From Deltaproteobacteria bacterium (GTDB taxonomy: Bacteria > Desulfobacterota > Desulfuromonadia > Desulfuromonadales > BM103): DNA of 64,000 nucleotides. Below the pieces are notes generated by a model that had not been told where the DNA came from, searched no databases, and worked only from the letters and a program-made list of their open reading frames with translations. The position numbers were made by a program, and so were the translations under genes. The stretch lies in NCBI GenBank assembly GCA_019313185.1, contig JAFDBS010000140.1, positions 377 through 64,376 of the forward strand, given 5' to 3'. Positions 4,972-33,064 of the stretch are shown piece by piece; the stretch's first letter is position 1; every line of letters starts with the position of its first letter.

Positions 4972-5622
4972 ATGAAAAAACTGCTGTGTCTTTCTTTAAT
5001 TCTTCTATTCGTGGCCGCTTGCGCCCCTCCGCAGAACAAACAAGAACAGGGTACCCGGGTTGGTGTTGGTGTTGGGGCGGCCGGTGGTGCTCTACTGGGC
5101 CAGGCCATTGGCGGCAATACCAAGGCGACCTTAATTGGCGCTGCTGCGGGGGCCTTAGTGGGTGGCTTTGCCGGCAATCAAATCGGAAAATACATGGATG
5201 CCCAGGAGGCTGCTATGCGACAGGAACTCGCAGCGGTTGAAGCAGCAAACATCCAACGCAATGCTGACGTGTTGGCCGTCACCTTCAAGTCCGACTTTCT
5301 CTTTGATGTCGATTCTGCGAATCTCAAGCCCGGCGCATATGATGAAATCGGTCGAGTCAGCCGTGTCCTCAATCAATATCCGGAAACCAATATCCAGGTA
5401 GCCGGCCATACCGACAGTACCGGTTCTGAAACTTACAACCAGCAACTTTCAGAACGACGCGCTGCCAACGTTGAAAATGCATTGATTGGCCAGGGGGTTG
5501 CCCCAAACCGAATCAGTACGATTGGGTTTGGCGAGGCCGCGCCCATTGCTGACAATAATTCAGAGGCTGGGCGGCAACTGAACCGGCGGGTTGTCATTAC
5601 GATCAAACCCCAAGCATCCTAA
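4972..5622 (+). CDS. OmpA-family lipoprotein (Gly-zipper N-region plus OmpA_C peptidoglycan-binding domain)
   Basis: MKKLLCLSLILLFVAAC is a lipobox signal. It is followed by GVGVGAAGGALLGQAIGG glycine-zipper repeats and a C-terminal NIQVAGHTDSTGS...NRRV OmpA-like motif. GGAG lies 6 nt before the ATG at 4972. Confidence 0.85.
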   Translation: MKKLLCLSLILLFVAACAPPQNKQEQGTRVGVGVGAAGGALLGQAIGGNTKATLIGAAAGALVGGFAGNQIGKYMDAQEAAMRQELAAVEAANIQRNADVLAVTFKSDFLFDVDSANLKPGAYDEIGRVSRVLNQYPETNIQVAGHTDSTGSETYNQQLSERRAANVENALIGQGVAPNRISTIGFGEAAPIADNNSEAGRQLNRRVVITIKPQAS

Positions 5623-17955: not shown

Positions 17956-18702
17956 TTAAGACACTAGATCGGCCATGGTGTGACTTGCATTGTCATGAAA
18001 ACAAAACGTGGCGAGGTGGTCGTAGGAGGTTGGAGTCTTGTTCAAAAAAATCAAGCTGGCCCCTGACTCATAAGCGGCAAGGGGGAACAAATTGGCCGGT
18101 TGCACCGCCAGTGACGAACCAATCATTAACATCAGGTCACAGTTTGTTGCAGCCTGCCAGGCGCGTTGCATGGCCATTTCTGGCATGTCTTGACCAAATG
18201 AGACGGTGTCCGGTTTGACTAAGCCGCCACAAATTTCACAATGCGGGTCGAGGTTCCCCCCGTCGAGCCACGTTTGAACCGTTGCAATCGGCCAGCGATT
18301 GGAGCAACTGAGACATGAGGCCGTCATGTTGGTCCCATGCAGTTCGATGACATCACGATTTCCCGCAGCTTGGTGTAGCCCATCAATATTCTGTGTGATT
18401 ACCGTGTTCAAGACACCTCGACGCTCGAGTTCTGCAAGGCCGAAATGGGCTGCATTGGGTTTTGCGCTTAACAATGCCGGAATGAGTTCGCGACGCATCT
18501 TCCAGTACGAGATACGATTGTCTCTGCTCGCAAGGAACTCCTGGTAGGTTACGATGCGGTAGCGCTCCCAGATGCCTCCTTTCGACCGAAAATCTGACAG
18601 CCCTGACTCGGTTGATATGCCAGCCCCTGAAAAAGCCACCACTTTCCGTTTTTGCCGCAATAGAGTTCTGGCTTGTTCAAGCGCGGGACGGTCGCTATTC
18701 AT
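17956..18702 (-). CDS. cobB: NAD-dependent protein deacylase, Sir2/CobB family
   Basis: GAGISTESGLSDFR, TQNIDGLH, HG, and the zinc ribbon CLSC...CEICGG. 248 aa, the classical sirtuin size. Confidence 0.9.
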   Translation of the reverse strand: MNSDRPALEQARTLLRQKRKVVAFSGAGISTESGLSDFRSKGGIWERYRIVTYQEFLASRDNRISYWKMRRELIPALLSAKPNAAHFGLAELERRGVLNTVITQNIDGLHQAAGNRDVIELHGTNMTASCLSCSNRWPIATVQTWLDGGNLDPHCEICGGLVKPDTVSFGQDMPEMAMQRAWQAATNCDLMLMIGSSLAVQPANLFPLAAYESGASLIFLNKTPTSYDHLATFCFHDNASHTMADLVS

Positions 18703-19361: not shown

Positions 19362-19931
19362 ATGAAAAAATCGCTTCCAAGGATAGCATTCTGGCTGATA
19401 CCCGAACAAAGGTTTTATGACGAGCTCTTGGCCATTATCGTCAAATTGGCGAAACGCTTTGACGCACCGGTTTTTCAACCTCATGTCACAATTTACTGTA
19501 CCAGACGTTCTGATGACCGGGATGAACTCACGCTTTTGACCAGCCTGGCACAGTTGACTCGCCCACTAACGTTGAATGTTGAGACTGTTCAGACCGGGGA
19601 AAGCCTCAACAAAACGTTATTTTTGCAATTACAAAAAACAGCTGAGTGCAACAGCTTGTATCAGGTTTTACATGGCGCTGCATCTAGCCCGTCAGGTTAT
19701 CGCTTCGATCCACATCTCAGCTTACTTTATCAACACACGCCACGCTTCATGCGAGAGGCTTTGGTCTCTCAGCTTGGGTTTCCGTATACGGCAATCAGAT
19801 TTGACAGGCTCCAGGCTGTGGCCATCCCAGAAAACCTCAGCAGTCTGGAATCCTTTTTGGGTTGGCAAACACTGCTTTCAATTCGTCTCGCACCAAGCAA
19901 AACCGCTTGCGAAGACCCGATTTGCCGATAG
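19362..19931 (+). CDS. 2H-phosphoesterase superfamily protein (cyclic phosphodiesterase-like)
   Basis: Two H-x-T/S-x motifs at the expected spacing: PHVTIY and PHLSLLY. About 190 aa. Start at ATG 19362 (MKKSLPR). Confidence 0.6.
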
Positions 19932-19993
19932 GATTGTGTTGGTATGCTTGTGGAAACAAACGCCAACCGGAACATTTCAACAGGGGAATGAAT

Positions 19994-20509
19994 ATGGCAG
20001 CAGAAATCGAGATTGTTCAGGGCGATATAACTCAGATGACCGTTGATGCAATTGTCAATGCGGCCAATCAGGGTTTACATGGTGGAGGCGGGGTTGACGG
20101 GGCAATTCATAGGGCGGCTGGGCCAAGGCTGCTCGAAGAATGCAGGACTCTAGGCGGTTGTCCTACGGGCCAAGCAAAAATCACCAATGGTTACGAGCTC
20201 CCCGCTCACTATGTTATTCATACTGTAGGCCCTGTTTGGCACGGTGGGAATCAGGGCGAGGATGAGCTTTTGGCTAGCTGTTACCGTTGCAGTCTTCACT
20301 TGGCGGATATGCATAATCTCAAAAGCATCGCTTTCCCCTCAATCAGCACCGGTGTGTACCGATTTCCGATTGACAGGGCCTGCCGGATCGCTCTGCAAAC
20401 GACCATTGCGGCCTTGAATGATAGACATTCATTGGAAAAAGTCATGTTTGTTTGCTTTTCCGACCATGACCTGAAGGCGTACCAAGAGGCTTACAGCGAA
20501 TTGACTTAG
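19994..20509 (+). CDS. ymdB: Macro-domain protein, O-acetyl-ADP-ribose deacetylase (YmdB-like)
   Basis: [21 protein letters not shown]...[15 protein letters not shown]...FPSISTGVY aligns closely with E. coli YmdB as I remember it. Confidence 0.9.
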
Positions 20510-20774: not shown

Positions 20775-21902
20775 GTGGACTGGCCCTATTACCGTACACT
20801 CTTTCCAGTCACCCAAAGGTCGGCGTTTTTCAACCATGCGGCGATTTCCGCACCATCGACCAAAGTCATTGCTGCCGTTCAAGAGCTGGTCAGCGAGCAA
20901 GCCTATTTGGGCAGCCAAGGGTACCGTTCATGGATGGACCGGGTCGAAACGGTTCGTCAACAAGTCGCGCGATTTGTCTGTGCAGCGCCAAGCGACATCG
21001 CCTTTGTAGCCAATACTTCCACTGGTTTGGGGCTTATGGCCGCTGGGTTTCACTGGACAGCCGGGGACGCCTTGCTGGTCCCGTCACCGGACTTTCCTGC
21101 CAACGTGTACCCATGGCAGAACTTATCCCAGCGTGGTGTCACGATGATAACAGTACCACGTCGCTCAGGTCGCTTGGCTGTCGAGGACTTTGCCAGACTT
21201 GTGACAGATAACGTACGCATGTTGGTTGTCAGCAGCGTTGATTTTGCAACAGGATATGCAGTTGATTTGAATGCAATAGGACGGTTTTGCCGGGAAAACA
21301 ACATCTTTTTTGGTGTTGACGCCATTCAAAGTCTCGGTGTCCGGCCCATCGATGTCGAAAAGGACCAAATCGATTTCGTGGCTGCAGGTGCCCACAAGTG
21401 GCTGCTTGGTCCAATGGGCATTGGCCTGCTCTATATTTCACCCAGGTTGCGACAACATCTGGATCTGCCACTGGTCGGATGGAAAAGTGTGGTTCATGAA
21501 GAAGATTTTCGTTTGCATTTCCAATTGCGGAAAGATGCCGCTGGGTTTGAGCCGGGCACATTGAACGTGGCCGGCATTGTTGGCTTGGGCGCGGCCATAT
21601 CGCTCTTGGAGGAGGTTGGCCTTGTGCAAATCGAGCAGCGCGTGAGCATCCTTTTGGATGAGTTGGCGGACGGTTTGGCGCAGCGGTCTCTGACTTTAAA
21701 AACGCCCTGGCCTGGCAAAGAGCGGTGTGGCATTTTGAGTTTCACAGCGGGCGATGACGTCTTCGCTCTCTCTAAACATCTGAACGAGCAAGGCGTTGTC
21801 TTGGCTCTGAGGGACGGTGGGTTCCGGCTTTCACCCCATTTCTACAATGACGCCGCCGACATCGAACGCTTCTTTTATGCGCTGGATTCGTTTTCAGGGT
21901 GA
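20775..21902 (+). CDS. Class V aminotransferase-fold PLP enzyme (cysteine desulfurase / C-S lyase-like)
   Basis: 375 aa with the PLP-lysine context AAGAHKWLLGPMGIGLLY. GTG start behind GAAGGGAGGG. Its 3' end overlaps the convergent dipeptidase gene by 28 nt. Confidence 0.85.
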   Translation: MDWPYYRTLFPVTQRSAFFNHAAISAPSTKVIAAVQELVSEQAYLGSQGYRSWMDRVETVRQQVARFVCAAPSDIAFVANTSTGLGLMAAGFHWTAGDALLVPSPDFPANVYPWQNLSQRGVTMITVPRRSGRLAVEDFARLVTDNVRMLVVSSVDFATGYAVDLNAIGRFCRENNIFFGVDAIQSLGVRPIDVEKDQIDFVAAGAHKWLLGPMGIGLLYISPRLRQHLDLPLVGWKSVVHEEDFRLHFQLRKDAAGFEPGTLNVAGIVGLGAAISLLEEVGLVQIEQRVSILLDELADGLAQRSLTLKTPWPGKERCGILSFTAGDDVFALSKHLNEQGVVLALRDGGFRLSPHFYNDAADIERFFYALDSFSG

Positions 21903-22942
21903 CCATTCAGGCCGTTTGGGAGTGCCTCAAGGTAAAATTCAAACCAATTGCCGCCAAGCAGAGCGTCAATTTCGGTTTTCGGATAACCGGCCTGAACCAT
22001 AAGCTCCACCAAGTTTTCCAGTTGGGCATGGCTTTCCAGTCCCGAGCAGTTTGTTTCATACCCGCCGAGATCGCTGCCCAGGGCAAAACCCCGGCTGCCC
22101 CACCGCTGTACAAGATAGTCGATTTGTTCGAAAACCTGCCTGCAGTCAGATTTGCCCGAGGTCGACAGCATCTCTGGCGCAAAACTTAAACCAATTACCC
22201 CGTTTCGGGATAACAATACAGAGATTTGGTCATCGCCCAGATTACGCGGTGTGTCGCAAAAATGCCTAAGCCCGGTATGCGAGCAACAAAGATGACCATG
22301 GAAAGAATCAAGCAGTTCCCAAAAACAAACTTCTGCCAAATGAGCGATATCGATAACAAAACCCCGTGTTTCGAGATTGGGTAACAGGGTCTGACAAGCC
22401 TTCGTTAAGCCTTCGGGGTTGACTGTTGTATTGCCGTCAGCGAGGCGATTTCTGCCGACGTGAGTTAAGCCGATAGTATGCACCCCCCAAACCCTGAGAA
22501 AAGAGGTGCCAATGTCCACCAACGCGTCAGCATTTTCTAAAAGAAGCATTTGACTGGTGAAACCTGGGGTGCCCCAAGCTGTTTCCAACTCCTCGCGTGT
22601 CCGAATTGTCGACAGGCTTGCAGTCAGGGCCTGCATAAGGAAAAGTTGCTCAGTCACATGTTGAACTGCCGTTGAACCATTAAATTTATCATTGCAAAAG
22701 ATTGCGCTGTTAAAAATTCTTACCTTGCCATCGCGGAGCGAAGATGGAGAGATGGGACCCCCACCTTTCTTTTCAAAAGGCAGGATGCACTGCTCTTTCA
22801 TAAGAGAATACAAAAGGTCTACGTGGCCGTCAAAACTCGACTGCCATGGGCTGACTTCATCGCTGGGCAAGCAGGTAGTCACTATGGATGCGTTCAAAAT
22901 GGTTTCGGTGGTTGCGGATGGTCCACTGGATGGTGCCCTCAT
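21875..22942 (-). CDS. Membrane-dipeptidase family (peptidase M19) protein
   Basis: M19 hallmarks FDGHVDL, VIDIAHL, CCSHTGLRHFCDTPRNLGDDQI and ALGSDLGG. ATG 22942 overlaps the methyltransferase gene by 86 nt. GTG 22882 and TTG 22870 are in-frame alternative starts. Confidence 0.8.
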   Translation of the reverse strand: MRAPSSGPSATTETILNASIVTTCLPSDEVSPWQSSFDGHVDLLYSLMKEQCILPFEKKGGGPISPSSLRDGKVRIFNSAIFCNDKFNGSTAVQHVTEQLFLMQALTASLSTIRTREELETAWGTPGFTSQMLLLENADALVDIGTSFLRVWGVHTIGLTHVGRNRLADGNTTVNPEGLTKACQTLLPNLETRGFVIDIAHLAEVCFWELLDSFHGHLCCSHTGLRHFCDTPRNLGDDQISVLLSRNGVIGLSFAPEMLSTSGKSDCRQVFEQIDYLVQRWGSRGFALGSDLGGYETNCSGLESHAQLENLVELMVQAGYPKTEIDALLGGNWFEFYLEALPNGLNGHPENESSA

Positions 22943-23780
22943 CCAAAATTTTCCAGGCAGGCAACAATTTGTTTTCCAGTAGATGTCGAACGTTTATGTG
23001 AGCATGCCCGGCAAACGAACCGCTCGGAACGCCTCCAAGCCAAGCAGTTTTGGGGGCGATTTCTGTCGACCACGACCAAGGGTCTGCCACCAACAGCTGT
23101 GCTCTGGTGTCTGATGTGACCCGGTTTAATTCGTCAAGGTGCTTGAGCGGCGCGGGAAGCTTGTCCAGCAAATTCAGAGAGCTGCTGCACTGGAAAACAG
23201 ACTTCGGGAAAGGCAAAGCCAAGGCGTCTGCCAAGACGAACTCGACCCGATTAAGAGGCCAATCATGAGGCAAGCGGACTTCCCGATGTTCGGTCAATTC
23301 GCCTTCCATGATTAAGTCGAACGACAAGCGACCTTCGCGAGTAAGAAGGCGAGCAGTTTGAATGAAGGCATGAGAGCGATCAATGCCAACAGCAAGCTCA
23401 GCGTTGCGCGCTAATTCAAACGTCAGTCTGCCGACTGCGCAACCGGTGTCCAAGGCAACCCCGGACGAGGCATTGAGCATTGATGACCAGCTGAGGTAGG
23501 CTGTATTCTGATCGGGGTCATCGAAAAGATCGGCAAAGTGACTCCAGAGATAAGCGGATACGACCGGTAGCTCTGTATATTTACCGACCAACGCCAAGTC
23601 GCTCTGTGGAAGAAGGCAGGCCATGCCATGGTCAATAGGGTAGTTTTTCCGGCAACCAGGGCAGGTTAATGTGGCCGTGTAAATATCTCCTTGGCGGGTT
23701 TCTTGGATATGTGCCGCTAGCGGGCGCTCTTCCGGTAGACAACCTGGGCAGACCACCAGATCAAGAAGTTGTCTGTGCAT
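22857..23780 (-). CDS. Class I SAM-dependent methyltransferase with N-terminal Trm112-like zinc knuckle
   Basis: The N-terminus LLDLVVCPGC...LTCPGCRKNYPI is a Trm112p-like CxxC/CxxC element. SAM motif I is VALDTGCAVGRL, followed by a post-I acidic loop (GIDRS). Confidence 0.8.
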   Translation of the reverse strand: MHRQLLDLVVCPGCLPEERPLAAHIQETRQGDIYTATLTCPGCRKNYPIDHGMACLLPQSDLALVGKYTELPVVSAYLWSHFADLFDDPDQNTAYLSWSSMLNASSGVALDTGCAVGRLTFELARNAELAVGIDRSHAFIQTARLLTREGRLSFDLIMEGELTEHREVRLPHDWPLNRVEFVLADALALPFPKSVFQCSSSLNLLDKLPAPLKHLDELNRVTSDTRAQLLVADPWSWSTEIAPKTAWLGGVPSGSFAGHAHINVRHLLENKLLPAWKILDEGTIQWTIRNHRNHFERIHSDYLLAQR

Positions 23781-23796
23781 GTGGGGCTGAAGACAA

Positions 23797-23837
23797 GCCC
23801 AAAGAAGGCATCTGCGCCACCAGATGCCCTCTTTGGC
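23797..23837 (-). promoter_or_regulatory. Strong intra-operon stem-loop between the repeat-peptide gene and the methyltransferase gene
   Basis: The minus-strand RNA GCCAAAGAGGGCAUCUG-GUGGCG-CAGAUGCCUUCUUUGGGC forms a stem of about 17 bp with one bulge and one G-U pair. It is followed by UUGUCUUC. It starts 17 nt after the peptide stop and ends 17 nt before the next ATG. Confidence 0.5.
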
Positions 23838-23853
23838 TTTTAAAGGGTGTCAG

Positions 23854-24024
23854 TCAAGCCGGGCCGTGGCAGCTCGGCGCATGGCAACTGGGCGCATGGC
23901 AACTCGGTGCATGGCAACTGGGCGCATGGCAACTCGGTGCATGACAGCTCGGTGCATGACAACTCGGTGCATGACAGCTGGCTAGACTAGAAACTTTTTT
24001 TTCAACTTTACGGGTTTTCAGCAT
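23854..24024 (-). CDS. 56-aa Cys-His pentapeptide-repeat peptide, candidate RiPP precursor
   Basis: ATG at 24024 lies 7 nt after AGGAGG, which directly follows the radical SAM stop codon. Translation: MLKTRKVEKKVSSLA SCHAP x7 SCHGPA. The longer ORF-track version (to 24078) would overlap the upstream gene. Confidence 0.7.
   Translation of the reverse strand: MLKTRKVEKKVSSLASCHAPSCHAPSCHAPSCHAPSCHAPSCHAPSCHAPSCHGPA
23860..23979 (-). repeat. Eight tandem 15-bp units encoding SCHAP/SCHGP
   Basis: Read directly: AGC/T TGT/C CAT GCA/G CCG/C repeated. Units 1-7 differ only at third codon positions. Unit 8 has CAC and GGC. Confidence 0.95.
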
Positions 24025-24037
24025 TGTACTACCTCCT

Positions 24038-26074
24038 TCATTCTGGGGTTTCGGGTTGAACCGCAGCCAAGAGTTCAAGCTGGCTTAATTCTCGTGCTGC
24101 ATCTTGGCACGTGGCCAGAAAATCGGCGTCTGACATTGTTGTTCCGTAAGTTGGCTTCAATTTAACAGCGATCTCTTTTAAGGTGATTGTCCCTGAGCAA
24201 TGCATGAGAAAGTCCCGGCCAAAAGCATTGACCTCAGTCACCTCAAGTTCTGTGTTCTGCTGACGAAATGCTAAATGGCAGGGGCTTTTCGTATAGCTCC
24301 GCACGTAGTTGCCAGCTTTCAGATCGGCAACGATAGATGGCATATCATAGTCAAACGATTCAACAATGACATTTTTGGGTCGCCGTGGCTGCCAATCATG
24401 TAAATGACACAAATCTATATTAACGGGTTTTTCGGATTTGGCAAATTCGGCAACCCCAATGGCGGCACATTCGTACAAGAGAACATTTTCCAGGTGTGAC
24501 CAATCGGTCTCATTTTGCAGACCGCAGAGTTTGGCGCGGGCGAATCCTGGAAAATGTTGAAAACACTTAGCGGCATTCATGTCAGCCATGTGCCCTGCGG
24601 TCCTATCGACCTGTCGTACGAAGCTTAGAAACAGATCGGCAGGGGATTCCATGAACGCTTTGCAAAGCAGCAAAAAGGTTTTGGGAAATAAATTTATGAT
24701 CAGGGGAAAACCATTGGCAAGGCAGGCGAGGTCAGGCAAAGGCAACGCTGGACAGGAAATGTTCCAGAAGCTGCTGAACACCTCCGGATCGCTGTCGATC
24801 ATTTGCTCGTCTTCTGGAAGTCTTGAGCCCTTGTCAAACTCCAAGCCGAGGGCAAAATACGTATCCACGTTTCGCGTAAGACTTTTAAAATATTTTGTGT
24901 GCAGGTCTGTCCCCGGCAAAACGGTCGGAAGTTGCATCAATGGATTACTGTTGCCCTGAATGCCACACGCGAGAGCGAGGAACAATGTCGCATCAACATC
25001 ATCCTTTTGCTCCTCAGGAAACCCGATCACGAAGCTGAGAGTCGGAACCAACCCAACTTCGGTTGTTTCGCGGACGCGTGAGAACAAAATCTTTTGATCG
25101 ACGCGCTTCCGGATAAAGCTCAGCGTGCGAACGGACCCTGAATCAATGCCATAACACATCGATTCGCAACCAGCTTCACGCATAAGGTCAAGAAGTTTCG
25201 CGTCGACAGTGTCGAGACGAGAAATACAGTACCAGGGAGTGGTCTGCAGGCTGGCACTGAGGACGGCTTGGCAAAAGTGCTCAACGTAGCTTCGATCCGC
25301 TGTGAATTGGTCATAGGCCAAAAGGAAGCAATCTGCGCCATGAGCCTCTCGAAGGGTCCTCATTTCTCGAATAATTCTTGATACGGAATACGTGCGTGTC
25401 CGCCGTTTCCAAAAGGCCGCCTCTGAACAGTAAATACAGTCGTGCGGACATCCGCGTCCAACCTCAAGAATGGCAATGCTCCGCGGCAGTTCGCAGGCCT
25501 GGCGATAAAAGTCGAGGGATTGGACCTTGCTGTAATCAGGCAGCGGCAAGGTGTCGAGGTTAGACAGCAGCGGGCGATCAGAGTTATTGAGGACGGCAGC
25601 GCCACGTCGCCAAGATAGCCCCGCGACTTCTTGCAAATTACCTCCCTTGTCCAGGGCTTTCACCAGTTCGGAAAATGTAACCTCTCCCTCGCCCCGTATG
25701 ACCATGTCAACTTGAGGGAACCTTTCGAGCGTTTCTTTCGCAAGAAACGAGGCGTTGTGGCCGCCCACCACAACCTTCAGTTTGGGCCGGACCTCTTTCA
25801 GGCGTTGCGCAATTTGCAGGATCGGCGGATAGGTTACGCATTGAGCGCTGAAAGCGACCAGTTGAGGCTCTGTATCCAAGATCTGCCTGGCAGAATCATG
25901 ATAAATGTCGCGGCCGAATGGCAACGCTCCGGAACGCAGGGCAAGAACCTGATCAAGAATGGTGACCGTGTGCACACAGGGTTCGAGCATCGACGCAAGG
26001 TTTATAAGCCCCAGAGGGGGCAAGTTGTACATGGACTGATGATAAAAAGGTGGAAAAACGAAAGTTATATTCAT
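24038..26074 (-). CDS. B12-binding-domain radical SAM enzyme with C-terminal PqqD-like peptide-recognition segment
   Basis: An N-terminal Rossmann region (KLKVVVGGHNASF...DMVIRGEGE), the cluster motif GCPHDCIYC (nt 25427-25450) and a C-terminal ...EVNAFGRDFLMHCSGTITLKEIAVKL...DADFLATCQDAARELSQLELL. The likely start is MNITFVFPPF at 26074. The upstream in-frame ATG at 26113 is an alternative. Confidence 0.88.
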   Translation of the reverse strand: MNITFVFPPFYHQSMYNLPPLGLINLASMLEPCVHTVTILDQVLALRSGALPFGRDIYHDSARQILDTEPQLVAFSAQCVTYPPILQIAQRLKEVRPKLKVVVGGHNASFLAKETLERFPQVDMVIRGEGEVTFSELVKALDKGGNLQEVAGLSWRRGAAVLNNSDRPLLSNLDTLPLPDYSKVQSLDFYRQACELPRSIAILEVGRGCPHDCIYCSEAAFWKRRTRTYSVSRIIREMRTLREAHGADCFLLAYDQFTADRSYVEHFCQAVLSASLQTTPWYCISRLDTVDAKLLDLMREAGCESMCYGIDSGSVRTLSFIRKRVDQKILFSRVRETTEVGLVPTLSFVIGFPEEQKDDVDATLFLALACGIQGNSNPLMQLPTVLPGTDLHTKYFKSLTRNVDTYFALGLEFDKGSRLPEDEQMIDSDPEVFSSFWNISCPALPLPDLACLANGFPLIINLFPKTFLLLCKAFMESPADLFLSFVRQVDRTAGHMADMNAAKCFQHFPGFARAKLCGLQNETDWSHLENVLLYECAAIGVAEFAKSEKPVNIDLCHLHDWQPRRPKNVIVESFDYDMPSIVADLKAGNYVRSYTKSPCHLAFRQQNTELEVTEVNAFGRDFLMHCSGTITLKEIAVKLKPTYGTTMSDADFLATCQDAARELSQLELLAAVQPETPE

Positions 26075-26344
26075 GTCGACCTGTTTGATGTTGAGCAAAC
26101 CAGGTCTAAGCATAACAAAGACTCATGCGTTCGCCAAGTGGAGAGGCCTGAACAGTCTAGATGCAATGTCGACGATCATCGAAAACGGTGGAACGCGGCA
26201 GGCAAAGCGCCGGATCAAAACTTGGAATTAAATTTGCAAAGACTAAGAAATGTTATGCCGATTGACTGTCCAGGTTTAATAGTATTGTTAAATCGCGGTT
26301 ATTAAATCGTCTTATAACTTATGACTGTTCATTAATCCTTTCAG

Positions 26345-27540: not shown

Positions 27541-27617
<77 letters not shown>

Positions 27618-27723
27618 ACAAAGGGTTGTCACACTAGCGGAAAGCCTTGTTCTTGTCAAGGCATCTCTGGTTTCTTGCCGAATCAACCAAAATTGGAGTA
27701 TAAGGTCAGCAAGGATTTATTTT

Positions 27724-28776
27724 ATGGATATGACCATTTCTCTCGAGCAAGCGCTCACTCTCCGCAGCAAGGGAGCCCTGATGGTTGACGCTCGCAGCCC
27801 TGAGGAATATGCCGAGGCCACCATACCGGGGGCGGTCAATGTCCCAATTCTGAATAACGCCGAGCGCGCTGAGATTGGCACACTGTACAAGCGCGAAGGG
27901 AAATTAATCGCTCGCCGGCGTGGTGTGGAAATTGTTGCGCCAAAAATTCCGGTTTTGGTCGAGAGGGTTGCCGAAATGCGGGCAAGTGAAACCAGCCTTG
28001 CCGTTGTCTTCTGCTGGCGAGGCGGTTTGCGCAGCCGGGCCATGGCCCAGTTTCTAGATTTAGCTGGTATCCCGGCACGGCAGATGGCCGGTGGGCACAA
28101 GCGATTTCGCCAACATGTATTGCGTTTCTTCTCTGAAGCAGAATGGGGCCGGATGATCGTCTTGCGAGGGTTGACCGGTGTTGGCAAGACGAGAATTTTG
28201 AACAATTTGGCCGCAATAGGCCATGAGGTGATTGACCTTGAGGGGTTGGCCAGTCACCGTGGCAGTGCGTTCGGCAACCTTGACTTGCCCGCTCAGCCGA
28301 CACAAAAGATGTTCGAGGCGTTACTGTGGGACCGTCTCCAGCGCATTCCACCGACCAGTCATGTTTTGGTTGAGGGTGAAAGCCGCTGGATCGGCCGTCT
28401 GCAGCTGCCAGTCAGAGTCTACCAAGCCATGCAGCAAGAAACCTGCATTTGGTTGAATGCGTCATTAGCGACCCGGGTGAACAACCTTCTTGAAGACTAC
28501 TCGGCGCTGACTGAGGCCAAAGAGCGATTTGTCGAGCCCATTCAAGCCCTTAAGGAACGTCTCGGCGCACAGGCTGTTGAGGAGCTCCTGTCCTATCTGG
28601 ATAGGGGGGCATGGGACGACCTCGTCAGGGAACTGATGACGCGCTATTATGACCCGCTTTATCGTCATAAACAACCAAAGGAATGCATTGAAGTCAATGT
28701 CGAATCCCTTGGGGCAGGGCTGGATGCCGTGCTCGATGCCGTCACCCAAGTCCTTGCACCAGTTTCGGAACGATGA
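27724..28776 (+). CDS. selU: tRNA 2-selenouridine synthase
   Basis: A rhodanese domain with CWRGGLRS, then the P-loop LRGLTGVGKTRIL. Start at ATG 27724 (MDMTISLEQ), because the longer ORF-track version overlaps the tRNA. Confidence 0.85.
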   Translation: MDMTISLEQALTLRSKGALMVDARSPEEYAEATIPGAVNVPILNNAERAEIGTLYKREGKLIARRRGVEIVAPKIPVLVERVAEMRASETSLAVVFCWRGGLRSRAMAQFLDLAGIPARQMAGGHKRFRQHVLRFFSEAEWGRMIVLRGLTGVGKTRILNNLAAIGHEVIDLEGLASHRGSAFGNLDLPAQPTQKMFEALLWDRLQRIPPTSHVLVEGESRWIGRLQLPVRVYQAMQQETCIWLNASLATRVNNLLEDYSALTEAKERFVEPIQALKERLGAQAVEELLSYLDRGAWDDLVRELMTRYYDPLYRHKQPKECIEVNVESLGAGLDAVLDAVTQVLAPVSER

Positions 28777-29050: not shown

Positions 29051-30172
29051 TCAACTTTCTGCCGAGAGCTTTTCTAGAAAAGACGTCACTTTAGGTGTAA
29101 ACTTCTCTGGTTCGACCAAAAACGAATCATGGCCATAGTCTGACTCGATCAGGTGGTATTCCACGGGTTTGTTAAGACAACGCAAAACGTTAACAACTTC
29201 TTCTGTCTGGTAAGGCGCGTATAGCCAGTCTGAGGAGAAAGCAAACCAGATGGACGGACAGGCCAAATTATTCAGGGCGCTCTCCAAACTGTCGAAACCC
29301 CAGCTTACATCATACAGGTCGAGGGACTTCGCCAGATAAAGAAAGCTGTTGGTGTCAAAGCGCTCAACGAAGTTCCTACCGTTGTAAGTCAGGTATCGCT
29401 CAATTTCATATTGTCCAAAGAAATCGAACTGTCCGTCGCGGGCAGAAAAGCGCCGGCCAAATTTCAATTGCATAGAGGTGTCGGAGAGGAACGAAATATG
29501 ACCAACCGCCCGCGCCAAAGCCAAACCATCCGCGGGGGGGTGCTCAGGCTTGTAATTCCCTTTGCGCCACATCGGGTCATTGTAAATTGCCTGCCTCGCC
29601 AAGGCGTTCAAGGCGATCGCCATTGGCGACGGTCGGCCTGTCCCTGCGATCGGAATGATCGAACGAACATGCTCCGGATAGTGCACAGCCCATTCCAAGG
29701 CCTGCATCGCACCCATGCTCCCACCAATCACGGTCAGTAATTGTTCAATACCCAGGTGGTCAATAAGTAGTTTTTGAGCCCTGACCATGTCGCGGACCAT
29801 GAGAACAGGAAATTGCAGATGATAAGGTTTTCCGGTACGCGGGTTGATGCTTGACGGCCCGGTGGAGCCGAAACATGAACCGATAACGTTAGAGCAAATC
29901 ACAAAATACTGGTCCGTATCGAGCACTTTGCCCGGTCCAATCATGCCGTCCCACCAGCCCGGCTTGCGATCATCCGGACCATGTCGTCCTGCAGCATGAG
30001 CATCGCCAGTCCAGGCATGTGCGACCAAGACAGCATTCGATTTACTGCGGTTTAACGTCCCGTAGGTTTCGTAGGCCAAAGTCAAGGGGCCGAGAACACG
30101 GCCACTTTCCAGCTGTAGTTCAACGTCGAAATCGACGGATCTGGTCTTGACGATCCCTACACTCTCATTCAT
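29051..30172 (-). CDS. metX: Homoserine O-acetyltransferase
   Basis: An alpha/beta-hydrolase with [12 protein letters not shown] (nucleophile elbow) and the typical MetX N-terminus (...[21 protein letters not shown]). Start at ATG 30172, downstream of the riboswitch terminator. Confidence 0.9.
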
Positions 30173-30189
30173 GCAAAACCCCGTAAGGC

Positions 30190-30390
30190 AAAAAAACAGG
30201 CCCCTACCCAAGAAATCGTGAGAAGGGGCCTGAAGATACATTGACAAGATCGTACCAGCGGCTCCGTCCTCATCTCCCCTGCCGTTTGACGCAGGTCGGA
30301 TTTAGCACCTGGCACTCACCTGAAGAACCTTCAGCGAGTCGGTTGCTGTGGCTTCGCAGGGCCTGTCCCTCCACCACTCTTGATAAAGAC
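30190..30390 (-). promoter_or_regulatory. SAM-I (S-box) riboswitch with terminator, leader of metX
   Basis: The minus strand reads TTATCAAGAGTGGTGGAGGGACAGGCCCTGCGAAGCCACAGCAACC...GGTGCTAAATCCGACC...GGGGAGATGAGGACG. It is followed by CAGGCCCCT...AGGGGCCTG and T7 (30190-30232). Confidence 0.85.
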
Positions 30391-30458
30391 GCGCTATGTC
30401 TTTGTGTGCCGAACTGTACCGGAATAACAAGGTTTTGTCAAACGGAAAAGCCTCTGAC

Positions 30459-31607
30459 TCAGCCAGATAAGGCCTTGTCAAGATCCTCCCAGAGATCCTC
30501 AACATCTTCAATGCCTGCCGAAATTCTCATCAGCTTTGGGGTTATCCCCAATTCGGTTTTCACCGGTTCAGGGATGGCTGCATGCGACATTGTCCAGCAA
30601 TGCGTCAGAATCGTCTCAACACCGCCGAGGCTCGGTGCAATAATCGGTAAATTCACGTTCTTGAGCAGAGCCTGGACGTGATCCGTCTCAGAAACTTCAA
30701 ATGAAAGGACTGCCCCGGCCCCGGAGGCTTGAGCGAAGTGGCGCTCGGCTCCGGGAAAGTGATCCAGGCCCGGGTAAATGACTCGTTCAATTGCTGGATG
30801 GGAACGAAGACGCTCTGCAATGGTTCTGGCATTGGACTGGCCCGTCTCGAGCCGAAGTTTCAGGGTTTTCACCCCTCGAGAGAGGAGAAAGGAATCAAAC
30901 GGCGCTAGCACCGAGCCGTAGGCATTTTGATGACGTTTAAGGCGCTGGGCCAGGCCGTTATCATTGGTTGTGACCAGACCGGCAAGAAGGTCGCTGTGCC
31001 CACCAAGAAACTTGGTTGCACTGTGGATCACGACGTCGATGCCCAGCACAATCGGTTTCTGCAACAGCGGAGTCATGAAGGTGTTGTCTAGGAAAGAAAT
31101 CAATTTATGCTCTTTGGCCAACGCCGCTGCAGAACGGATGTCCGTAATGTTGAACAGCGGATTTGACGGGGTCTCCAAGAACAGGCCTTTTGTATCGGGC
31201 TGAATTGCCTTGTGGATCGCATCAAGATCACTGGTGTCGACAAAAGTGACTGAGATGCCCAGATCGGGCAATATCCGATTCAGGTAACGCCAGGTTCCTC
31301 CGTAGAGATCTCGCGGCGCTATCAAATGATCTCCGGCTTTGAGCAAGGAGAGGCTGCCGGCAATGGCCGCCATGCCGCTGGAGTAGGCAAATCCGCTGCA
31401 GCCAGCTTCCAGCAAGGCAATGGCTTGTTCAATCTGTGCACGGCTTGGATTGCCGCTCCGCGCATAATCATAATCGCCGGAAGTTCCACCCGGATGATGA
31501 TAAGTCGATGCCTGGTATATCGGCACAGTGGCGGCCCCAGTATAGGGGTCTCGATCTGTTCCCTGATGGACTACCAACGTTGCTGGCCGGTACAAAGTTT
31601 CTCGCAT
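30459..31607 (-). CDS. Cys/Met-metabolism PLP enzyme (cystathionine beta-lyase / gamma-synthase family)
   Basis: 382 aa with PIYQASTY, DYARSGNPSR and the conserved SATKFLGGHSD PLP-lysine motif. Start at ATG 31607 behind GGAGGG. Confidence 0.82.
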   Translation of the reverse strand: MRETLYRPATLVVHQGTDRDPYTGAATVPIYQASTYHHPGGTSGDYDYARSGNPSRAQIEQAIALLEAGCSGFAYSSGMAAIAGSLSLLKAGDHLIAPRDLYGGTWRYLNRILPDLGISVTFVDTSDLDAIHKAIQPDTKGLFLETPSNPLFNITDIRSAAALAKEHKLISFLDNTFMTPLLQKPIVLGIDVVIHSATKFLGGHSDLLAGLVTTNDNGLAQRLKRHQNAYGSVLAPFDSFLLSRGVKTLKLRLETGQSNARTIAERLRSHPAIERVIYPGLDHFPGAERHFAQASGAGAVLSFEVSETDHVQALLKNVNLPIIAPSLGGVETILTHCWTMSHAAIPEPVKTELGITPKLMRISAGIEDVEDLWEDLDKALSG

Positions 31608-31676
31608 GATCTGCCCTCCGGGCAAATAGTATCGGTTCTTATTTGGTTGAGTTCAAGTCAACAGGGGCTTGCAAGG

Positions 31677-32831
31677 TTAGCCCCTTGCAAGGGCCTGGTC
31701 GAGATCAGAAATAATGTCTTCAACGCTCTCGATCCCCACTGACAGACGCAAAAGCGATTCACAGACCCCCAGCCGTTTGCGTTGTTCGACCGGAATGTCA
31801 GCATGAGTCTGGACAGCGGGTAAAGTCATCAGACTTTCCACACCACCAAGGCTTTCGGCAAAAGAAATACGGCGAAGCTTCTGCAGAACCTGCTTAGCAT
31901 GGTCAGCATTGCCGAGTCGAAAAGAAACCATGCCGCCATGGCCATCCGACTGAGCGATGTTGCGTTGATGGCCCGGGTGGCTCGGCAAACCAGGATAGTA
32001 GACCTGTTCAACGGCGGGGTGTGCCAGGAGCCATTCTGCTACGGCTTGGGCATTGTCACAATGACGTTCCATGCGTAACCCGAGTGTTTTCAAACTGCGC
32101 ATCAGAAGCCAGCAGTCTTGAGGGGAGAGGATGGCCCCTGTTGAGTTTTGCAGGAAGTAGAGACGTTCACCCAAGTCTGAATTGCGAGCCACCAGGACGC
32201 CAGCACAGAGATCGTTGTGCCCGCCGAGATACTTGGTCGCAGAATGGATAACAACATCGGCCCCATGCTCGAGAGGCCGCTGCAAAGCCGGTGTTAAAAA
32301 GGTGTTGTCAACGCACAGCAGCAGCCCACGCTCCTGGCAAAGGCTGGCCAGGGCGGGCAAGTCGGCAATGCCGAGAAGCGGGTTGCCGGGGGTTTCTATC
32401 AACAAGGCTTTGGTGTGCGGCGTGCACGCCGCAGCAACCTTAGAGGAATCGGTGGTGTCGACATAACTGACGCTGAGCGCAAACTTTCCAAAAATCTGGT
32501 CAAGCACCCTGTACGTTCCTCCATACAGGTCCTCTGAAACCACCAAGTGATCTCCTGCGGAAAAATGGAGGAATAACGTTGTCAACGCGGCCATTCCCGA
32601 AGAGAAAGCCAGCCCGCGGCTGCCCCCTTCAAGGTCCGCCAACGCTTCTTCCAAAACCTGCCGGGTCGGATTCCCAGATCGGGTGTAATCGAAGCCGGTG
32701 CTTTCTCCGACCGCGGGATGAGCATAGGTCGAGCTCGGATAGATTGGAAAGCTGATCGCCCCGGTTGCAGCATCGCGCTTGACGCCGGCTAGGACGCTTC
32801 GAGTGTGTCTGCTAACGCCTGAAGTTGTCAT
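31677..32831 (-). CDS. Cys/Met-metabolism PLP enzyme (cystathionine gamma-synthase / O-acetylhomoserine thiolyase family)
   Basis: 384 aa with PIYPSSTY, DYTRSGNPTR and SATKYLGGHND. Start at ATG 32831 behind GGAGGC. Paralogue of the downstream gene, arranged like the Bacillus metI-metC pair. Confidence 0.82.
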   Translation of the reverse strand: MTTSGVSRHTRSVLAGVKRDAATGAISFPIYPSSTYAHPAVGESTGFDYTRSGNPTRQVLEEALADLEGGSRGLAFSSGMAALTTLFLHFSAGDHLVVSEDLYGGTYRVLDQIFGKFALSVSYVDTTDSSKVAAACTPHTKALLIETPGNPLLGIADLPALASLCQERGLLLCVDNTFLTPALQRPLEHGADVVIHSATKYLGGHNDLCAGVLVARNSDLGERLYFLQNSTGAILSPQDCWLLMRSLKTLGLRMERHCDNAQAVAEWLLAHPAVEQVYYPGLPSHPGHQRNIAQSDGHGGMVSFRLGNADHAKQVLQKLRRISFAESLGGVESLMTLPAVQTHADIPVEQRKRLGVCESLLRLSVGIESVEDIISDLDQALARG

Positions 32832-32867
32832 GTTTTGGTTGCCTCCATTCAAAGATAGTGAGGCTAT

Positions 32868-33064
32868 CAAAAAAGCCCCTTCTCGATGAGAGAAAGGGCT
32901 TGCAGACACATTGGCATGCTCTGAAGCTCCGCTCTCATCTTCCCCACGGCATCTTTGACGCGTGGGCGGGATTTAGCACCTGACATCCAAGCACGTTGCG
33001 TGCAATTTGAACCGGTTGCTGTGGCGTCTTTGGGCCCGTCCCTCAGCCACTCTTGATGAAAACG
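32868..33064 (-). promoter_or_regulatory. SAM-I (S-box) riboswitch with terminator, leader of the two-gene transsulfuration operon
   Basis: The minus strand reads TTCATCAAGAGTGGCTGAGGGACGGGCCCAAAGACGCCACAGCAACC...GGTGCTAAATCCCGCC...GGGGAAGATGAGAGCG. It is followed by an 11-bp stem (AGCCCTTTCTC/GAGAAGGGGCT) and T6. Confidence 0.85.

Follow-up and report, generated by a model that had tools for sequence, protein, structure and literature searches.

Within a 64,000-nucleotide stretch of contig JAFDBS010000140.1 from the Deltaproteobacteria bacterium assembly GCA_019313185.1 (hereafter the window, whose numbering is used for all its positions), we analysed a compact gene cluster built around a short peptide with repeated Cys-His units. 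An earlier note on the same DNA had proposed it as an operon for a ribosomally synthesised and post-translationally modified peptide (RiPP). On the minus strand, the cluster begins with a B12-binding radical S-adenosylmethionine (SAM) enzyme (24038..26113; open reading frame (ORF) of 691 aa, stop codon TGA at 24040-24038). A Shine-Dalgarno sequence, AGGAGG (24032..24037), stands directly 3' of this stop, and a 7-nt spacer separates it from the ATG at 24024 that opens the 56-aa precursor peptide (23854..24024), composed of the leader MLKTRKVEKKVSSLA and the core (SCHAP)x7 SCHGPA. The gene for a 307-aa protein (22857..23780), predicted from profile, PDB and AlphaFold comparisons to join a Trm112-like zinc ribbon to an N-methyltransferase of the OvoA-MT/OvsM/OvoM type, starts 73 nt past the peptide stop. 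It is followed by the ORF of an M19 (renal-type) dipeptidase (21875..22942), which overlaps the 3' end of the methyltransferase gene with any of its candidate start codons; the actual start may be GTG 22882 or TTG 22870.

Reading the sequence bore out what the earlier note had said of this layout: the four minus-strand ORFs lie at the coordinates it gave, the ribosome-binding site, its spacer and the 56-aa ORF are found at their positions, and the methyltransferase and dipeptidase genes overlap whichever dipeptidase start applies. The domains it had named (B12-binding, Radical_SAM with CPHDCIYC, Trm112 with a methyltransferase, M19) were all found by Pfam. Its gene set proved correct for the four minus-strand genes but incomplete, having overlooked a fifth member: a 375-aa class-V (SufS-fold) enzyme dependent on pyridoxal phosphate (PLP), a probable C-S/C-Se lyase. 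The gene for this enzyme, on the plus strand at 20775..21902, is convergent with the operon, and the two overlap at the 3' end of the dipeptidase gene. The NCBI record of the source metagenome-assembled genome annotates the four enzymes generically and leaves the peptide unannotated. A scan for terminator-like structures placed a 16-bp hairpin between the peptide and methyltransferase genes (23799..23836, minus strand). By terminating transcription in part or by stabilising the transcript, it could enrich the message for the precursor; so strong a hairpin may raise the ratio of precursor to enzyme transcripts, as happens in many RiPP operons.

How widely is this arrangement conserved? A homologue search returned 599 matches at E<=1e-20. 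The top 120, which were examined for coverage, are 51-64% identical over 95-98% of the length, except for the truncated P0001 (99% identical, 80% coverage). Named hosts comprise Desulfuromonas, Geobacteraceae, Thermodesulfobacteriota and Desulfobacteraceae, and every one of them belongs to an anaerobic lineage. We gathered 86 neighbourhoods, of which 4 end at the enzyme gene, leaving 82 informative ones; some loci are near-duplicates, and the counts given here are not fully independent. A contig scan with a single enzyme sequence yielded one close relative (L001), and 13 other loci with distant class-B enzymes (24-27% identity) that were not used. The earlier note had staked its proposal on a Cys-His repeat ORF standing beside close radical SAM homologues, and 79 of the 82 informative Desulfobacterota loci encode such a peptide, nearly all of them directly 3' of the enzyme gene. 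In L020 the peptide gene is located upstream of the enzyme gene and on the other strand, and only L001, L056 and L057 were found to have no peptide.

The peptides of this family begin with a leader of the form ML[K/E]x[K/R]xVE[K/S]K... (typically ML[KE]x[KR]xVEKKVS.AA, with MLKxKKVEKKVS.AA as the consensus), followed by units of x-C-H-[A/G/S]-P with C or U (selenocysteine, Sec) at the Cys position. Leader and C-H-x-P core are kept at the amino-acid level though the enzymes are only 45-64% identical, and the number of repeats ranges from 2 to 13 across loci with the reading frame always kept. In the window, the peptide region is a coding 15-nt DNA tandem repeat, and the pairwise nucleotide differences among its seven SCHAP units (44/44) all fall in the third codon position and are synonymous. 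Since all differences between units are synonymous, and the same peptide type recurs in all but three of the informative loci, the peptide is not a chance ORF. Searching protein collections with it gave no candidates, and the exact peptide is absent from them; the diversity of the peptides was therefore read from raw DNA. The family thus presents the short ribosomal precursor, conserved leader and iterated core that are generic to RiPPs. The CefA model NF038108, which describes a Cys at every fifth position, reached 17.7 bits, with scores spanning 13-19 bits, under its cut-off of 30.

Some precursors, with as many as 13 units, consist of two repeat blocks joined by a short spacer (…CHAPVQA[S/A]CHAP… or …GVSAQACHGP…). 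Unusual C-terminal ends (VNC, LNA, LSV) were seen in such two-block precursors (L070 6416-6676, L072 2250-2495, L062, L063, L077). In L041 a second precursor copy at 5334-5489, located 2.6 kb downstream of the first (2743-2868), has a decayed C-terminus (…CHALHDSHEPRRADC), suggesting that precursor genes undergo duplication and decay.

At 25 loci, which lie on short metagenome contigs, an in-frame TGA occupies the Cys codon of the last or only unit. One such peptide reads MLQVKEIEKKVLTAAVNEASTTYVVP[S/T]-U-HAPTESPVRR; L078 has three Cys units and then T-U-HGPA, L015 ends in ...PVPQ-U-HGPS, and L020 combines one CHGP unit with one U-HGP unit. Past the TGA come CAY, a Gly/Ala/Ser codon and CCN, with synonymous variation, and coding constraint therefore continues beyond the UGA. 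A hairpin of 7 bp, AUCUCCG-GUU-CGGAGAU, begins 14-17 nt after the UGA. Its seven pairs are kept in 12 diverse sequences, three of them with compensatory changes, and no Rfam model matches it. Thus the UGA is aligned with the Cys of homologues and is shortly followed by a stem-loop, as in selenoprotein genes, which indicates that the TGA-type peptides are selenocysteine (U-H-A-P) precursors. The Sec unit always comes last, as expected if the insertion element must follow directly. The interchange of Cys and Sec points to the chalcogen as the chemically important, functional atom.

Two precursors each are present in L084 (3758-3889 and 4230-4346), L087 (6641-6787 and 7135-7251) and L088 (8142-8285 and 13493-13609): a multi-Cys peptide directly after the radical SAM gene and, shortly before the M19 dipeptidase gene, a separate Sec peptide with a single unit. 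One enzyme set may hence make the product in both a sulfur and a selenium version. The motif U-H-[A/G/S]-P, seen at 25 loci (L079 2156-2200 among them), agrees exactly with the U-H-x-P that is listed as the selenocysteine motif in the active sites of formate dehydrogenase and formylmethanofuran dehydrogenase (PMC13188914). The likeness could be a coincidence, or the Sec-insertion context could have been recruited from the genes of these dehydrogenases. As for selenium use in the window's own organism, a TTG-initiated ORF for the tRNA 2-selenouridine synthase MnmH is found at 27559-28776 (plus strand), which means that the organism uses selenophosphate, though the precursor in the window is of the Cys type. 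A tRNA gene at 27541-27617 (minus strand) lies under the 5' end of this ORF. Considered as a tRNA-Sec, it was ruled out, being a tRNA-Met (CAT). Because the tRNA overlaps the 5' end of the ORF and the profile match begins at residue 66, the true start of MnmH must be further downstream.

In the radical SAM enzyme, Pfam detected a B12-binding domain at residues 29-151 (PF02310, E 1.4e-17) and a Radical_SAM domain at 217-379 (PF04055, E 4.3e-16), and the cluster motif C222-x3-C226-x2-C229 (CPHDCIYC) is invariant among homologues. An N-terminal B12-binding Rossmann domain followed by a barrel with CxxxCxxC is the architecture of class B radical SAM enzymes. The true start is probably the second ATG at 26074, giving 678 aa, as in the homologues and the NCBI record. 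The earlier note had also described the C-terminal segment as PqqD-like. The Pfam PqqD model finds no match in the window's own enzyme but does match 8 of 22 homologues (best E 1.5e-4). The AlphaFold model (predicted local distance difference test, pLDDT, 88.9) has a Rossmann and barrel core, together with a three-strand, three-helix module at 582-678 whose predicted topology is that of a PqqD-like recognition element. The gene adjoining the precursor gene would thus encode a modifying enzyme that carries a recognition-element-like module, as is typical of RiPP systems. Taken together, peptide co-occurrence, the conserved leader and core, and this module all supported the RiPP-type reading of the earlier note.

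The fold neighbours of the enzyme are the cobalamin radical SAM enzymes CysS, TokK, TsrM, MgmA and OxsB, together with AprD4. They match at about 1e-20 with an identity of only 12-20%, so that the enzyme is of class B but has no close relative among the characterised members. AprD4, although it has a B12-binding domain, is not known to use cobalamin. The best NCBIfam match is ApyD (NF050148; 276 bits against a cut-off of 750, E 4.6e-82, profile 9-431 of 645), and it spans the catalytic half only, leaving the enzyme outside the ApyD family. ApyD is a B12 radical SAM enzyme containing a recognition element that C-beta-methylates Tyr in aminopyruvatide (PMC10635010). Across the 22 homologues the extra cysteines C92, C207, C262, C281, C296, C316, C320 and C517 are invariant, and C454 and C669 nearly so; these residues might bind an auxiliary Fe-S cluster or take part in chalcogen chemistry.

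For the methyltransferase, Pfam reported a Trm112p-like N-terminus followed by Methyltransf_11/25/31. The sole strong NCBIfam match is TIGR04345 (ovoA_Cterm, the OvoA C-terminal 4-mercaptohistidine N1-methyltransferase domain; E 3.6e-29, profile 5-236 of 242). Sequence matches in the PDB are led by OvsM (8e-24), OvoA (2.5e-23) and the 5-thiohistidine N-methyltransferase OvoM (1.5e-16), and the next methyltransferase follows at 1.8e-6. An EGEL hairpin and a W[LI]GG motif, both outside the SAM site, are common to the protein and OvsM/OvoA/OvoM. The AlphaFold model (pLDDT 93.7) gave the same picture: fold matches 1-11 are all OvoA, OvsM or OvoM, with target-normalised TM-scores of 0.77-0.86 for OvsM and OvoM, and the next fold match comes at 6.7e-11, a gap of ten orders of magnitude. 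With OvoA-MT/OvsM/OvoM nearest by sequence, fold and family motifs, the enzyme is specifically related to the N-methyltransferases of 5-thio- and 5-selenohistidine. OvsM, the 5-selenohistidine N-methyltransferase, leaves unsubstituted histidine unmethylated, and enzymes of its type act on the free amino acid (bioRxiv 10.1101/2024.04.10.588772).

The dipeptidase belongs to Peptidase_M19 (PF01244, E 3.4e-49; 168 bits against a cut-off of 26, profile 8-315 of 319). Its N-terminal HxD metal motif is present as GHVD, and the gliotoxin dipeptidase GliJ is among its PDB matches (E 3e-12). The PLP enzyme stays under every NCBIfam cut-off (SufS 144 bits against 475; EgtE 70 against 400). It has the SufS/CsdA fold, and its PLP lysine, Lys208 (K208), is invariant in the family. 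The persulfide Cys in a C-terminal GHHC loop that marks cysteine desulfurases (SufS/IscS/CsdA) was not found: no Cys is conserved in the C-terminal third of the family, and in the profile alignment to the desulfurases 5b7s and 7tlm the 13-residue GHHCA loop with the catalytic Cys is deleted. A PDB search with the C-terminal 98 residues alone gave no match; it was the profile search that settled the question of the loop. The cystine C-S lyase C-DES matches the family profile over its full length (1e-40). Because the catalytic-Cys loop is deleted and C-DES matches over the full length, the enzyme appears lyase-like rather than a desulfurase, and is a probable C-S/C-Se lyase. A role as cysteine desulfurase or selenocysteine lyase supplying S or Se was considered and ruled out, since the catalytic Cys loop is absent.

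Clustering of the ORFs in the collected neighbourhoods returned four recurrent real families: the radical SAM enzyme, the M19 dipeptidase, the Trm112-methyltransferase and the class-V PLP enzyme. Genes for transporters, proteases or immunity are not among the recurrent ones. The earlier note had seen no adjacent exporter, immunity gene or leader peptidase in the window, and none is conserved in the neighbourhoods either, which fits its idea of an intracellular product. Partner genes were counted in the 40 loci whose downstream sequence extends for 5 kb or more. The M19 dipeptidase was seen in 27/40, the PLP enzyme in 20/40, recurring together with the dipeptidase, and the methyltransferase in 19/40. 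At selenocysteine-type loci the dipeptidase was found in 13/13 and the PLP enzyme in 10/13. The window holds all three partners. The identical five-gene arrangement occurs in the complete genome of the cultured Geoalkalibacter halelectricus (CP092109.1, around 3.35-3.37 Mb), whose peptide consists of MLEIRAIENKQAVQAA and then eight units.

The earlier note had suggested a cofactor, metal ligand or redox buffer as the product. The Sec variants, the link of the methyltransferase to the Ovo/Ovs enzymes and the lyase-like PLP enzyme together narrow this to a product of the thio- or selenohistidine type. We therefore propose, tentatively and with a little less than an even chance of being right, that the cluster encodes a RiPP-like, oxygen-independent thio-/selenohistidine pathway of anaerobic Desulfobacterota that yields an ovothiol- or ovoselenol-like product. 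The full form of the idea we consider possible but doubtful: strict anaerobes would make chalcogenohistidines of the ovothiol or ovoselenol type without oxygen on a ribosomal template, a cobalamin radical SAM enzyme fusing to His the chalcogen of the residue beside it, sulfur for Cys and selenium for UGA-encoded Sec, and a dipeptidase and a lyase releasing the product.

In this scheme, the radical SAM enzyme would bind the leader of the peptide via its C-terminal module and, once per repeat, would join the sulfur of Cys or the selenium of Sec to an imidazole carbon of the neighbouring His, most likely C5. This joining would take the place of the oxygen-dependent sulfoxide synthases OvoA and OvsA. 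Housekeeping peptidases would trim the repeats, the M19 dipeptidase would open the cross-linked Cys-His dipeptide, and the PLP enzyme would beta-eliminate the cysteine skeleton to leave 5-thio- or 5-selenohistidine. Where present, the methyltransferase would N-methylate the imidazole, giving an intracellular redox metabolite like ovothiol or ovoselenol. Multi-copy cores would deliver several product molecules per peptide, and in the Sec forms genetically encoded selenocysteine would be the selenium donor.

Each of these steps has a precedent, in ThnL, GliJ/GliI, OvoB/EgtE or OvoA-MT/OvsM. In gliotoxin biosynthesis, GliJ and GliI pair an M19 dipeptidase with a PLP-dependent C-S lyase for thiol installation. 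ThnL is a B12 radical SAM enzyme that makes a thioether (PMC9407657), and the synthesis of ovothiol, ergothioneine and ovoselenol includes the lyases OvoB and EgtE and the methyltransferases OvoA-MT and OvsM (PMC12631010; 10.1101/2024.04.10.588772). Sulfoxide synthases of the OvoA type catalyse an oxidative coupling (PMC12631010), and the proposed scheme fits anaerobic hosts because the oxygen needed for such a coupling is lacking there. It also uses every conserved gene, explains the interchange of Cys and Sec, and fits the absence of an exporter.

Several points weigh against this proposal. The reaction chemistry proposed for the cluster has been read from its genes. C-methylation is what the majority of characterised cobalamin radical SAM enzymes carry out, among them ApyD, the nearest curated family. 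The cluster encodes none of the peptidases that would be required to shorten the x-C-H-A-P units to dipeptides. Between a third and a half of the loci lack the methyltransferase gene within about 6 kb, and the same holds for the genes of the dipeptidase and of the PLP enzyme. The PLP enzyme is nearer to SufS than to EgtE. The methyltransferase scores 102 bits with TIGR04345, under the cut-off of 170 bits and hence outside that family by score, and its extra Trm112 domain could adapt it to a peptide rather than to the free amino acid. The choice of C5 over C2 is a guess from the relatives of the methyltransferase alone.

The main rival reading is that the radical SAM enzyme is a plain class-B C-methylase, which we rate as unlikely but far from negligible. 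One carbon per repeat would be methylated (candidates include C-beta and C2 of His, and Pro or Ala), N-methylation of His would fall to the second methyltransferase, and the product would be the modified Cys/Sec-His-rich peptide itself, acting inside the cell in a metal or redox role. ApyD, the nearest curated family, is a RiPP C-beta-methyltransferase containing a recognition element, and CysS, TokK, TsrM and MgmA, most of the top structural neighbours, are methylases as well. Cys/Sec-His repeats are natural metal ligands, and U-H-x-P is also a metal-site motif of formate dehydrogenases (PMC13188914). Moreover, six Cys-type loci have the enzyme and the peptide, with the other three genes not nearby. 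What such a methylase leaves unexplained is the rest of the cluster: it gives no role to a dipeptidase, which acts on dipeptides only, or to a lyase-like PLP enzyme, yet an M19 dipeptidase accompanies every Sec-type locus and a PLP enzyme most of them. Nor does it account for the ancestry of the second methyltransferase among N-methyltransferases of thio- and selenohistidine.

It is improbable, in our estimate, that the enzyme forms the cross-links and that these are then retained in the peptide as a ladder of thioether or selenoether rings, giving a stable redox or metal-binding peptide, with the dipeptidase and PLP enzyme serving S/Se turnover or salvage. The invariant C/U-H dyad and the thioether made by ThnL agree with this idea, and the Trm112 fusion of the methyltransferase could serve peptide binding. 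Against it stand the action of OvsM-type enzymes on the free amino acid, and the tight, repeated linkage of the M19 and PLP genes in both clades, which argues for a role in the pathway. Even less probable, to the point of being very unlikely, is that the peptide imitates the U/C-H-x-P loop in the active site of Mo/W formate dehydrogenases, for maturation, regulation or the handling of S or Se for their cofactor. The motif is indeed identical to the Sec motif of formate and formylmethanofuran dehydrogenases (PMC13188914), but the 86 neighbourhoods have no conserved gene for formate dehydrogenase or molybdopterin, an eight-fold repetition of an active-site loop would have no rationale, and the partner enzymes are unrelated to molybdoenzyme maturation. 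That the 56-aa ORF is an untranslated chance frame over a DNA tandem repeat, an idea to which the 15-nt periodicity, the missing annotation in the source record and the absence from protein collections might lend themselves, is effectively refuted by the purely synonymous substitutions between units, the strong ribosome-binding site at an ideal distance, the conservation of the amino acids across enzymes of 45-64% identity, and repeat numbers of 2 to 13 that are always in frame. A formylglycine-forming reaction like that of anaerobic sulfatase maturases was rejected as well, since it belongs to a different enzyme class and would leave the Sec forms without sense.

Returning to the proposed thio-/selenohistidine pathway, the closest comparison is with ovothiol and ovoselenol synthesis (OvoA, OvoB, OvoA-MT/OvoM; OvsA, OvsM). 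Both would start from Cys (or a selenium donor) and His, both have an imidazole N-methyltransferase of the same clade, and the PLP lyase-type enzyme could play the role of OvoB. In contrast to those systems, the cluster has no sulfoxide synthase gene and carries a cobalamin-type radical SAM enzyme in its place. Its substrates would be residues of a ribosomal peptide instead of free amino acids, and its selenium would come from encoded selenocysteine, not from a selenosugar. In addition, its hosts are anaerobes, and its methyltransferase falls below the TIGR04345 cut-off and carries a Trm112 domain.

With ApyD and the cobalamin radical SAM C-methyltransferases of other RiPPs (aminopyruvatide, proteusin and bottromycin types) the cluster shares B12-binding and radical SAM domains, a recognition element and a precursor with a leader. 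The precursor and the partner enzymes are unrelated, however, and the reaction proposed here would form a chalcogen-carbon bond instead of adding a methyl group. The biosynthesis of pyrroloquinoline quinone (PQQ), mycofactocin and 3-thiaglutamate relies on a metalloenzyme, radical SAM or other, that has a PqqD-type element and modifies a short peptide; peptidases then cut out a small product that stays in the cell, and no exporter is involved. The cluster differs in its core, which is repeated up to 13 times, so that one peptide could yield many products, in its use of a cobalamin radical SAM enzyme, an M19 dipeptidase and a SufS-fold lyase, and in the residues concerned, Cys/Sec and His.

The pairing of an M19 dipeptidase with a PLP C-S lyase, by which a cysteine conjugate becomes a free thiol, recalls gliotoxin (GliJ and GliI). 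That system is fungal, however, and acts on a conjugate derived from glutathione; GliI is of another PLP subfamily, and the similarity to GliJ is modest (E 3e-12). CefA (NF038108), the sole curated peptide model giving any score, has the same Cys period of five in a short peptide, but the His and Pro of the unit, the leader and the cobalamin-type maturase are not part of the CefA family. Finally, Lewis and colleagues (cited in PMC13188914) reportedly described in 2021 Sec-containing RiPP precursors from Geobacter-type bacteria that undergo radical SAM maturation to thio(seleno)oxazoles. That system too has a natural precursor with encoded Sec and radical SAM processing, but its maturase is said to be of the SPASM type without a cobalamin domain, its Cys/Sec motif C-terminal, and its product a different one.

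The earlier note had not recognised the system in any characterised RiPP class, and this impression held: the peptide, the radical SAM enzyme, the methyltransferase and the PLP enzyme all score below the cut-off of every NCBIfam model, and our literature search found no publication describing the system. A review of B12 radical SAM enzymes from February 2026 mentions neither selenium nor imidazole chemistry. As a RiPP-type system the cluster is of a known kind; its precursor family, its encoded-Sec variants and its combination of enzymes are undescribed. The known routes to 5-thiohistidine and its selenium analogue, the only ones described as of late 2025, begin with oxidative coupling of histidine by OvoA or OvsA (PMC12631010). 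A peptide-templated, radical SAM alternative would be relevant to the question of how redox metabolites of this kind could arise in anaerobes. The cobalamin radical SAM enzymes would gain a reaction type new to them, and the RiPPs a new class whose core is repeated and multi-turnover. If the proposal is true, this would be the first thiol or selenol antioxidant derived from a RiPP, and no earlier pathway would have drawn the selenium of a small molecule from selenocysteine inserted during translation. The Sec forms offer natural precursors with encoded Sec at the reactive position, and with it a built-in isotopic and mass tag for the chemistry, and they possibly link the selenoprotein machinery to the synthesis of selenometabolites. 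Since the cultured Geoalkalibacter halelectricus carries the full five-gene set, the hypothesis is directly testable.

Beyond the cluster itself, a Macro-domain O-acetyl-ADP-ribose deacetylase gene (19862-20509, plus strand) stands beside it in the window, with a Sir2/CobB deacylase gene close by (17956-18702, minus strand). The Macro gene is also present in several closer relatives at about 70% identity (L015 6244-6774, L018 11158-11679, L024-L026). Both genes were considered as pathway members and set aside, the Macro gene occurring only in a few close relatives and neither gene being among the conserved families; the adjacency of the Macro gene is probably lineage synteny. About 3 kb away, at 29051-32909 on the minus strand, lie MetX (homoserine O-acyltransferase) and two PLP enzymes of the cystathionine gamma-synthase/beta-lyase family, and genes of sulfur amino-acid metabolism are therefore found close to the cluster.

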